A stretch of DNA of 64,000 bases from Candidatus Versatilivorator sp. Lineage in GTDB: Bacteria > Acidobacteriota > Terriglobia > Versatilivoradales > Versatilivoraceae. Below the pieces are notes generated by a model that saw only the letters and a program-made list of their open reading frames with translations, had not been told where the DNA came from and made no database searches. The translations under genes were made by a program, and so were the position numbers. Positions 24,034 to 27,511 of this stretch are shown one piece after another. The DNA is taken from contig OZ242296.1 in NCBI GenBank assembly GCA_965207735.1, positions 4,448,001 to 4,512,000 of the forward strand. The letters are read 5' to 3'. Position 1 is the stretch's first letter; every line of letters begins with the position of its first letter.

Positions 24034-25147
24034 GGCCCGGCCGTGCGGATCACACAAGAGTGAAACAATCGAAAATCGGCCATCCTTTCGCGACCTTGGC
24101 ATCCCGTCGCGGTTAACCTCAACGCCTTGGTGGCCTTTCGTCGTCCTTCTTGTCCCTTCGTGGATAGCTCCTTTTTCTTTTGTTTCAGGAGAGCCGATCT
24201 CCGGTGCCTCGCGCTTTCGGCAATCTGCTGTCGCCGCCTTCGCGGCTCGACCTGGAGCTACCCCTTTCCATGGGCTCACGCCCACGGCTACCTGCTGCCG
24301 CCGCTCCGCGGCTCGATGGATCGCCCGGGCGTTCGCCCGGGATTTCTTATTGCCAACAAGTGTCGCCCCCGCCCTGTCGTGCGGATCATACGAGAGCAAA
24401 ACAATCAGAAATCGATCATCCCTTCGCAACCTTGGTACCCCGTCGCGGTTAACCTCAGCGCCTTAGTGCCCCTTCGTGGTCCTTCGTGGATCACTCTTTT
24501 TCTTTTGTCTTTTGTCGGTTGTTTCAGGCAAGTTCCGCCCCCGCCCTGCCGTGCGGATCATTCGAGAGTGAAACAATCAGAAATCGACAATCCTTTCGCG
24601 AACTTGGTATCCCGTCGCGGTTAACCTCAGCGCCTTCGTGTCCCTTCGTGGTCCTTCGTGCCCCTTCGTGGATAAGTCTTTTTCTTTGTCTTTTGTCGGT
24701 TGTTTCAGGCAAGCGAGGCCCCCGCCCCCCACGACGGGGCGGATCATTCGAAGGTGAAGAAACAGGGTTGTTTCAGACAAGCCGGGCCCCCGCTTTGCCG
24801 TGCGGATCATACATAGAGTGAAACAATTGGAAATCGACCATCCCTTCGCGACCTTGATACCCCGTCGCGGTCAACCTCAGCGCCTTCGTGCCCCTTCGTC
24901 GTTCTTCGTGCCCCTTCGTGGATAAGTTTTTTGTCTTTTGTCTTTTTTCGGTTGTTTCAGACAAGCCGGACCCCCGCCCTGTCGCGCGGATCATACGAGA
25001 ATGAAACAATCAGAAATCGACAATCCCTTCGCGAACTTGGCACCCCGTCGCGGTTAACCTCAGCGCCTTAGTGCCCCTTCGTGGTCCTTCGTGCCCCTTC
25101 GTGGATAAGTCTTTTTCTTTTGTCTCTTGTCGTTTGTTTCAGGCAAG
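24034..25147 (+). repeat. Tandem array of six non-autonomous IS110-ended elements (24034-24193, 24361-24532, 24533-24713, 24714-24781 empty, 24782-24965, 24966-25147)
   Basis: Each begins ..CCCCGCCC..CGGATCA..GAGTGAAAC (with variants) and ends TGTTTCAG(G/A)CAAG (first unit ends CAGGAGAG); the array abuts the IS110 element. Confidence 0.9.
24229..24314. repeat. REP-like repeat family C
   Basis: CCATGGGCT.ACGCCCACGGCTACCTGCTGCCG motif; copies at ~35257-35304, 50044-50240, 57174-57259. Confidence 0.8.
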
Positions 25148-25199
25148 TCCCGCCCCCGCCCCCCACGACGGGCGGATCATTCGAGGGTGAAACAACGGA

Positions 25200-25390
25200 T
25201 CATTGTGAAAGAATAAGCACCTGGCGAGACTCCGGCAGCTACGCCCCGTTCCAGCATTGGTGCCCCGTGCCCCAAGACAAGTCTGGGTCCGAGCAGGTCA
25301 TCATTCATTAGTGAGGCTTCCCGGGAAGCTCTCCTCAAGGCAAGAATCCGAACGACCACGCCAACTCGGGCCGGAGCCCTCGCCCTGGAG
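25200..25390 (+). ncRNA. Putative bridge/seek RNA in the IS110 5' non-coding region
   Basis: GGCGAG-A-CTCCGGC can pair with GCCGGAG-CC-CTCGCC; inner hairpin GCTTCC-CG-GGAAGC; position matches IS110-group bridge RNAs. Expression not shown. Confidence 0.6.
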
Positions 25391-25402
25391 GAGGCCAATC
25401 TC

Positions 25403-26809
25403 ATGCAAAAGAGCAGGAAAGTCAACACGAAGGCGAAGAAGACCCCGAAGAAGAAGCGCAGCCGTTCGACAGCCTTGTCGCGGATCCACCCCGAGGTGGC
25501 AGGGATCGACCTGGGGAGTCGGGAGCACTGGGTGTGCGCTCCGGAGGTGACCCCAGGGAAGCCGAACGTGCGCACCTTCGGCACCACCATGGAGCAGTTG
25601 CAGCAACTGGCCGACTGGTTGCTGGAGCAAGGGGTGGAGTCGGTGGCGATGGAGAGCACCAACGTGTATTGGATTCCCCTCTACGAACTGCTGGAGTCCT
25701 GCGGCATCGAGGTCTTGCTGGTCAACGCCCGGCAGTTGCGCTACGTTCCGGGCCGCAAGACCGACATGCGGGACTGCCAGTGGATCCAGTTGCTGCACAG
25801 TTGCGGCTTGCTGCGGGGATCCTTCCGTCCGCACGAGGCGATCGTCCGGGTTCGGACCCTGCACCGGCAACTGAGCACTCTGGGGGCCGAGAGTACCCGC
25901 TTTGTGCAGTGGATGCAGAAGGCGCTGGATCAGATGAACGTCCAGATCCATCGTGCGGTCACCGATCTGACCGGTCAGACGGGGATGGCGATCGTGCGGG
26001 CGATTGTCGACGGCGAACGGGACCCGGTCCGTCTGGCGGGTCTGCGGGACCGACGGTGCAAGAAGTCCAGCCGGGAGTTTGCCGAGCACCTCAGAGGCAA
26101 CTGGCGAGAAGAGCATCTGTTCAACCTCAAGTCGGCGCTGAAGCTCTACGACATGACTCAACGCGAGATTGCGGCCTATGAGGCCCGCATCCTGGAGGAA
26201 ATCCAGGCGCTGCAACCGGTGGAGCGCCACGACCAGCCCGTGCCGAAGCATCCCAATGCGATCAAGGAAAAGGCGATTCGCCGCCGCGGTGGGCACCACC
26301 TGCGCACCGAACTGTGGCGCTTTGCCGGAGTCGATCTGACGCGTATCGACGGCATCGGCACCGAAGCGGCCCTGACCCTGCTGACTGAGGCCGGCCTCGA
26401 CCTGACGGCCTTCCCCTCGGAGAAGCACTTTGTATCCTGGCTGCGCCTGGCTCCAAAAACGGCCGTCTCCGCAGGCAAGCCGCTCCACTACAAGAAGGCC
26501 AACAGCACCGGGTCTACTCGCGCCGCCGCCGTCCTGCGCATGGCAGCCGTCTCTCTGAAGCACTCCAAGACCGCTCTGGGGGCCGCCTTCCGTCGCAAGG
26601 CCCGCCACAAGGGATGGAGTGTCGCCGTCTTCTCCATGGCTCGCCGGCTGGCCGTTCTCGTCTACCGCATGCTGCGCTACGGCCAGGACTACATCGACAT
26701 CGGGGAAGCGTGCTACGAGGACCGGTTCCGGCGACGACGCCTCGCGGGCCTCAAAGATGCCGCTAAGTCTCTTGGTTTCAACCTGGTTCCACAAATCGCA
26801 GCCGCTTGA
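25403..26809 (+). CDS. IS110-family DEDD recombinase/transposase
   Basis: AGIDLG, VAMESTNVYW, GRKTDMRDCQW, IDGIG, FVSWLRLAP..SAGK; GGAGG RBS. Confidence 0.95.
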   Translation: MQKSRKVNTKAKKTPKKKRSRSTALSRIHPEVAGIDLGSREHWVCAPEVTPGKPNVRTFGTTMEQLQQLADWLLEQGVESVAMESTNVYWIPLYELLESCGIEVLLVNARQLRYVPGRKTDMRDCQWIQLLHSCGLLRGSFRPHEAIVRVRTLHRQLSTLGAESTRFVQWMQKALDQMNVQIHRAVTDLTGQTGMAIVRAIVDGERDPVRLAGLRDRRCKKSSREFAEHLRGNWREEHLFNLKSALKLYDMTQREIAAYEARILEEIQALQPVERHDQPVPKHPNAIKEKAIRRRGGHHLRTELWRFAGVDLTRIDGIGTEAALTLLTEAGLDLTAFPSEKHFVSWLRLAPKTAVSAGKPLHYKKANSTGSTRAAAVLRMAAVSLKHSKTALGAAFRRKARHKGWSVAVFSMARRLAVLVYRMLRYGQDYIDIGEACYEDRFRRRRLAGLKDAAKSLGFNLVPQIAAA

Positions 26810-26860
26810 ACTGCGGGGTTGTTTCAGGCAAGCACCCCCCGTCCCCTACGAGGGGCCGGA

Positions 26861-27511
26861 TCAGCGCCGCCGCAAGAGAATATAGAGGGCTCCGCCGCCT
26901 CCGTCTGCGAGACGAGCCGATGCATAGGCGATGACGTGACGGCTCATGCGCCGGGTGTCCAGCCATTTCGACAGCCTTTCCTTCAATGTCGGCCGACCCT
27001 CCCTCGAGTGGTTTCCCCGCCCGTGAACCACCCGTACGCATCCATGGCCCTGCTTGAGGCTGGAATGGATGAAATCCTCGAAGGCTTTCCTGGCCTCGGT
27101 GGCGACAAGTCCGTGCAGATCGAGGTGAGCCTGTACCGAAAAACGCCCCTTCCTCAGGCTGCCGATCCAGCGGCGGCCCTCGGGATGCGGTGTCCCCTCC
27201 AGGTATTCTCCACTCATGGTCAAGTCGAAACGTCCCTTCCCGGAGACAAACTCCTGTAGCAAGCGCAACCCTTCCTCCTCGTCGTCAATGGGACCCGGGA
27301 TTTCGAGCACCGGAGTCGCCCGGGATGGAGCGGAACTCCAACCCAGGGGAGCCACCTCCCGCATGGACCGGGCGAACAATTGGTCGTCGCTGAGGGTCTC
27401 GGGCAATCCGACCGGGGCCTTCGCCTTTTCCGGAACTGCCACGGGGGATCGCCGACGAATCCGAGCCAATTCGGCAAACGACTTGAAGGCTCGATAGGCG
27501 GGCTTCTTCAT
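26861..27511 (-). CDS. Smr/MutS2-domain endonuclease
   Basis: LDLHGL, VVHGRG, GGGGALYILL. Confidence 0.9.
   Translation of the reverse strand: MKKPAYRAFKSFAELARIRRRSPVAVPEKAKAPVGLPETLSDDQLFARSMREVAPLGWSSAPSRATPVLEIPGPIDDEEEGLRLLQEFVSGKGRFDLTMSGEYLEGTPHPEGRRWIGSLRKGRFSVQAHLDLHGLVATEARKAFEDFIHSSLKQGHGCVRVVHGRGNHSREGRPTLKERLSKWLDTRRMSRHVIAYASARLADGGGGALYILLRRR

Follow-up and report, generated by a model that had tools for sequence, protein, structure and literature searches.

Stacked non-autonomous relatives of an IS110-family element are already known from Pseudomonas putida KT2440, in the form of ISPpu9 and MITEPpu9 (PMC12288879, PMC8450116). Tandem non-coding units beside IS110 genes, with one-sided matches, were described by Hu et al., according to whom insertion does not regenerate the target (10.64898/2026.08.14.744561). 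Insertion at half-matches and single-stranded excision have been shown for IS621 (10.64898/2026.08.31.748434), and copy-out for CazIS110-1 (10.1101/2025.10.25.684509). In two preprints IS110 is copied out and the donor is kept; in one of them, the product is a single-stranded circle that is assumed to be made double-stranded by the host.

We have analyzed a 64,000-nucleotide stretch of the Candidatus Versatilivorator sp. genome (contig OZ242296.1, positions 4,448,001 to 4,512,000; hereafter, the window) with an array that has a dihydroxy-acid dehydratase gene on one side and smr on the other. The array consists of six short mini-elements, one intact IS110 and a stub (Table 1). Every unit starts immediately after an AG dinucleotide; 5 nt precede a hairpin, which is followed by a short segment and then TGAAACA, and the unit closes with a right end that reads TTGTTTCAGRCAAG. 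AG is present at every junction. The initial annotation of six mini-elements and an intact IS110 with common ends and AG joints was confirmed, coordinates included. Its contiguous array is limited to U2-U6 and the IS, which abut (24361-26832), but U1 is set apart by a 167-bp gap with an Acido-Lenti-1 match. The left-end-like stub that it had placed after the IS is present but older than U3-U6 and the IS, being found in the related genome G002, and its final bases are the smr stop codon. No target duplication is visible in the window, as had been stated, but genome-wide (G000) an extra 5-bp RCAAG follows the right end at 17 of 150 terminal ends. This extra RCAAG may come from a self-overlapping guide with 5-base periodicity, i.e., from a register slip.

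Table 1. Features of the array in the window (positions count from the first nucleotide of the window).
Feature	Position	Strand	Remark
U1, old mini-element, 160 bp, degenerate right end ..TTTCAGGAGAG	24034..24193	+	shared with G002
Gap module, 167 bp; Acido-Lenti-1 match at 24268-24313	24194..24360	.	12 genomic repeats
U2 mini-element, 172 bp	24361..24532	+	G002 has a unit at the same place
U3 mini-element, 181 bp	24533..24713	+	
U4, empty, 68 bp: the two ends of a mini-element fused to each other	24714..24781	+	
U5 mini-element, 184 bp	24782..24965	+	
U6 mini-element, 182 bp; the IS inserted at its right end, 25134-25147	24966..25147	+	
Full IS110, 1685 bp	25148..26832	+	
IS left end: 5 nt, DNA hairpin (~25156-25175), segment ATCATTC (25176-25182), sub-terminal repeat TGAAACAA (25188-25195)	25148..25195	+	
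Predicted bridge RNA, two internal loops	25228..25377	+	covariation and alignment fold
Predicted target guide 25275-25281 and 2 handshake nt	within bridge RNA 25228..25377	+	
Same-strand donor segment 25300-25306; donor guide 25338-25344	within predicted bridge RNA	+	
IS110 recombinase, 468 aa, intact, PF01548 and PF02371	25403..26809	+	
IS right end TTGTTTCAGGCAAG, with sub-terminal repeat, donor site and AG core	26819..26832	+	
Stub, 31 bp: remnant of an older left end, from the hairpin to GGATCA, fused to smr gene end	26833..26863	+	

The recombinase belongs to the IS110 family, with matches to the DEDD RuvC-like domain PF01548 (E 2.7e-22) and the Transposase_20 domain PF02371 (E 8.8e-12) and a 2-nt AG core at both ends of the element. 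The motif positions correspond to D36, E84, D121, D124 and S356. The IS's left end is 255 bp and the right end 23 bp long, and it is the long left end, upstream of the gene, that holds the RNA, as in the IS110 group, and not a long right end, as in the IS1111 group; sub-terminal repeats (TGAAACAA / TTGTTTCA) of 8 bp are nevertheless present, a length within the 7-17 bp of IS1111 elements. Close relatives of the recombinase come from Terriglobia / Candidatus Versatilivorator, and no PDB match was found by sequence.

Ten copies of the IS (protein identity 96-100%) are present in the genome and account for all ten PF01548 matches. All ten carry the shared ends and lie directly behind a right end; copies lacking these ends, a check proposed in the initial annotation, were not found. 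Right flanks vary, a full mini-element following three copies and none following seven. The copies are accompanied by about 170 gene-less mini-elements. The right-end motif matches the 5.26-Mb genome 274 times, compared with 3 times for each of two shuffled versions, and 124 of the 274 are directly followed by a left end; among left ends, 86 of 197 do not lie behind a right end. A stricter census, which splits some arrays, that of the window included, retrieved 181 elements at 109 loci, 42 of them with at least 2 units, in agreement with the arrays at several loci that had been claimed. The gap module of the window has 12 full genomic copies, nearly all between a degenerate (mostly GGAGAG-type) right end and a left end, and since it recurs with similar neighbours, composite multi-unit blocks probably move together.

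Typical mini-elements carry no genes, and the bridge-RNA model described below matched only the ten IS copies and no mini-element of this genome (of 2270 candidates, 150 were scored). Long foreign ORFs are present in twelve large elements, which can be grouped into four classes; of the one member scanned per class, three proved to encode DDE transposases and one a group II intron RT. These ORFs represent nested mobile elements, not cassettes. The group II intron RT lies antisense inside mini-elements at four loci (G000:C1:1237085-1239242 and three similar ones), and DDE transposases are found in eight others.

By description, the layout resembles that of MITEPpu9, in which non-autonomous modules with the same boxes form tandem B-AG-A joints (PMC12288879). 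Both systems have the AG core at both ends, a hairpin-containing left box of ~43 nt and a short right box (ISPpu9 and its MITEPpu9 ssr9 module; PMC12288879, PMC8450116), and the mini-elements are like MITEPpu9 in that they share both IS ends and the AG joints and lack a recombinase. However, ISPpu9 inserts in REP sequences and has the MITE, present in 8 copies, behind the IS (PMC12288879), whereas here the IS lies behind the mini-elements, of which there are ~170. Another difference is that MITEPpu9 bears a small-RNA gene related to the IS leader (PMC12288879, PMC8450116), whereas the mini-elements here have no RNA gene and the predicted target guide corresponds to the right end.

The orthologous locus in 13 same-genus genomes is an empty interval of ~110 bp in 11, contains a different insert in one, and carries two units in G002, the closest relative, where the order is U1, gap, one more unit, 14 nt and stub. 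The stub is therefore the older part, and U3-U6 and the IS were placed before it later. Among the full-size mini-elements of the window, identity is 80-91%, and three of the four have closer copies elsewhere (U3, 95%; U5, 96%; U6, 94%), an indication that they arrived separately. Exact tandem junctions were found in 11 of the 13 same-genus genomes and in 0 of 27 other genomes searched. Tandem junctions (84, 15 and 10, respectively) and no recombinase match were found in G009, G011 and G012; G009 keeps one decayed bridge RNA (L258). A pattern scan of metagenomes yielded 7 IS-linked loci out of 120, plus the RNA-only locus L168, and scans of the phylum and of viruses gave no usable homologues.

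The left non-coding regions of 19 homologues were next aligned and folded, since the fold of a single sequence was uninformative (z +1.3). The alignment fold consists of two stem-loops with internal loops, and double changes are seen in 14 of 39 pairs. Covariation was evaluated with one representative per lineage (17 lineages, with self-type copies collapsed to one). The 3′ side of loop 1, the predicted target guide, agrees with the 7 nt left of the insertion at 113 of 119 positions (permuted mean 75.9), and the 3′ side of loop 2, the predicted donor guide, agrees with the right end at 101 of 105 (permuted mean 75.6; 15 lineages with a right end); both P values are ~1e-5, which is too optimistic given that the lineages are related. 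Kinship alone does not explain RNA-DNA identity at changed positions. In L035 and L050, the donor guide and the right end disagree. The first handshake base, after guide 1, is the same as the first left-end base in 14 of 17 lineages (P 0.001). No covariation with the right flank was seen for the 5′ side of the target loop (P 0.49 in the sense and 0.28 in the antisense reading); the target thus looks one-sided, and every right end would qualify. No σ70 site was found in 24900-25500.

As expected for the IS110 family, then, a two-loop RNA is predicted in the non-coding end, with guides that covary with target and donor. DEDD and Tnp domains, a two-loop RNA upstream of the gene and a 2-nt core are shared with IS621 (PMC11208160, PMC11208158), as are handshake bases beside the 3′ guide (PMC11208158). 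Unlike in IS621 (PMC11208160, PMC11208158), the non-coding strand is apparently read (AG being CT reversed), so that in IS621 terms the core would be CT, and 8-bp sub-terminal repeats are present despite the upstream RNA; in addition, the 5′ target-loop segment shows no covariation, and the 5′ donor-loop segment matches the same DNA strand as the 3′ one. The IS621-type geometry, where each loop pairs with both strands beside the core, was not found.

In this genome, target and donor guides read AGACAAG or AGGCAAG and are at most 1 base apart. Because the two are nearly identical, the predicted target is the element's own right end. Of 27 self-type copies from 6 assemblies, a script placed 26 behind a right end, and inspection of L031 by eye raised this to all 27. 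In comparison, a sister lineage with 79-80% protein identity has the same right end and a donor guide that matches it, with the target guide AGGTCAG; none of its 9 copies (2 assemblies) lies behind a right end, and it sits in GTGGTCAG repeats. One assembly holds both sister-lineage and self-type copies. The two guides differ in 19 copies; the target resembles the target guide more in 14 of these and the donor guide more in 5, and in L031 and L277 the targets fit variant target guides at 7 of 7 positions. We consider it probable that arrays grow through a predicted target guide aimed at AGRCAAG, the 7 bases that end every unit, since a further landing site would come with each unit that is added. 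The initial annotation had proposed that each insertion recreates a target, and the fit of the predicted target guide to the right end, together with the position of all ten IS copies, supports this.

The guide alone does not explain site choice, as perfect sites behind an inverted repeat are occupied far more often (116 of 218) than others (19 of 1241), a difference that is also seen outside long ORFs (83 of 118 versus 13 of 216). Protein binding of the repeat, or local hopping or closeness, likely adds a preference beyond the guide. The system is similar to the expanded IS110 loci in the stepwise growth of repeat units beside the IS110 gene and in the one-sided donor-end matches at boundaries (10.64898/2026.08.14.744561). 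It is different in that the target guide appears programmed on the right end and in that a natural control lineage is available.

On the covariation data, and by analogy with IS621 and ISPpu9, array growth can be pictured as follows. Recombinase and RNA would be supplied by the ten full copies, the sole source found in the genome, and the two AG cores of a unit would be the points at which it is excised or copied. The donor loop would then read the unit's own right end and the target loop the right end of another unit, with joining at AG. The base to the right of the target is seemingly unconstrained, which would make any right end usable, and an adjacent inverted repeat or physical closeness would add preference. 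Some mini-elements may have been moved by sister recombinases that are now lost. No IS circle joint was found among contigs listed from public runs, where a circle junction reads like a tandem junction.

In relatives, mini-elements that bear an RNA and lack a recombinase were observed at L277:1445-1815 (G005), L052:3940-4300, L064 and L065 (from ~3105) and L168:170-530. Each comprises a left end, a complete bridge RNA and a right end, and the target guide of each corresponds to the right end of the element in front. Contigs of two RNA-library runs of one study are identical to the donor-loop half of L277 over 114-115 nt, which is no proof of transcription. Tandem IS110 elements are present on Burkholderiaceae plasmids (L286, L287 and L310), the target guide of the downstream element fitting the upstream right end at 6-7 of 7 positions. 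Distant plasmid relatives (L282-L285, L288, L304, L307 and L309; 44-47% amino acid identity) have an A-rich target guide, the core AA and insertions in A-runs, several of which are apparently inside the reading frame of another IS.

Arrays could also be built by recombination at donor half-matches (donor loop against donor loop), a mechanism suggested for IS110 elements in general, and the similarity of the target guide would then be incidental. Half-match insertion is documented for IS621 (10.64898/2026.08.31.748434), repeat units beside IS110 keep LD-only matches (10.64898/2026.08.14.744561), and full right ends are preferred here beyond what 7 nt give. The sister lineage speaks against this: its donor guide fits the right end, yet none of its 9 copies lies behind one, even in the assembly that also holds self-type copies, and targets track the target guide, including the variant guides of L031 and L277. 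We therefore regard donor half-matching as an unlikely source of the arrays. Still less credit can be given to local tandem duplication or the insertion of ready-made multi-unit circles in place of unit-on-unit targeting. The recurrent gap module suggests that multi-unit blocks probably do move, and modular circles have been shown for ISPpu9 (PMC12288879), but neighbouring units are just 80-91% alike, U3, U5 and U6 have closer copies elsewhere, and each near-identical IS copy has a different left neighbour.

Like integrons, the system forms arrays of head-to-tail units, and these share ends and have variable interiors in 11 of the 13 genomes of the genus. That it is a domesticated, integron-like store of ordered and adaptive cassettes is nonetheless highly improbable. 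Integrons differ in having a tyrosine integrase, a fixed attI-type entry site and gene cassettes; here the enzyme is of the DEDD type and itself mobile, the 109 loci are scattered with no fixed entry site, no gene cassettes were found among the elements with long foreign ORFs, no conserved, expressed cargo was observed at orthologous arrays, and 11 of 13 relatives have an empty interval at the window locus. The ordered, integron-like arrays of the initial annotation thus did not hold up, as any right end can serve as a target, the IS, which is first in none of its 10 arrays, takes an internal place in 3 and the last place in 7, and typical mini-elements are gene-less. We conclude that the system is a real IS110 with a large MITE-like family, i.e., selfish DNA and not an integron.

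In addition to the predicted target guide, the 5′ segment of the donor loop, at the place of the left donor guide of IS621, was found to fit a segment of the left end, 20-29 nt past the core and beyond the hairpin, in the same sense as the 3′ donor guide. The sense match was 112 of 119 positions versus 91.6 in permutations (40 of 42 versus 30.2 with one row per distinct guide), and the antisense match was 76 versus 72.2. In distant plasmid relatives (44-47% amino acid identity), the same-strand signal is weaker and eroded in several (26 of 35, anchored by eye; P 0.13). From 8 further plasmid loci, only 3 were parsed, with rows close to the earlier ones (20 of 28; P 0.08); pooled, the match is 51 of 70 versus 46.1 (P 0.002). 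Judging from the sequences, the non-coding strand would be the pairing partner of both donor guides.

When the modelled junction is folded as a single strand, the repeat stem forms in 14 of 15 lineages, the two guide-matching segments being only partly unpaired. In integrons, a folded single strand, attC, serves as the substrate, a possible likeness. We tentatively propose, at less than even confidence, a non-canonical bridge RNA with a target loop aimed at the element itself or its siblings and with both donor guides on one strand around the hairpin, within a stem closed by the repeats; the substrate would be a folded single-stranded circle from copy-out, attC-like but read by RNA. An extruded hairpin also fits same-strand guides, and templated copying between the two donor segments is a further alternative. 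Mutation of the A-box repeat of ISPpu9 did not stop circle formation, the step assayed, which speaks against a strict need for the hairpin (PMC12288879).

Neither a target guide directed at the end of its own element nor a same-strand donor guide was found described in the accessible main texts of the IS110 literature, which include PMC11187229, PMC13626964, 10.64898/2026.03.19.712850 and 10.64898/2026.10.21.760802 and do not extend to subscription papers, figures and bioRxiv supplements. The self-aimed target guide and a third, same-strand guide beyond the left-end hairpin thus appear to be new here, though bioRxiv supplements may already show the guide layout.

IS110 enzymes are genome-editing tools, and in current models insertion destroys the target. 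Should both ideas put forward here fail, the elements are an ordinary MITE family, if a large one. With the same-strand donor guide, the alternative to second-strand synthesis by the host, in which a folded single strand is used directly, becomes testable. Self-aiming by a natural guide, if true, would show how repeat families of hundreds of copies arise and would provide a template for iterative DNA stacking.
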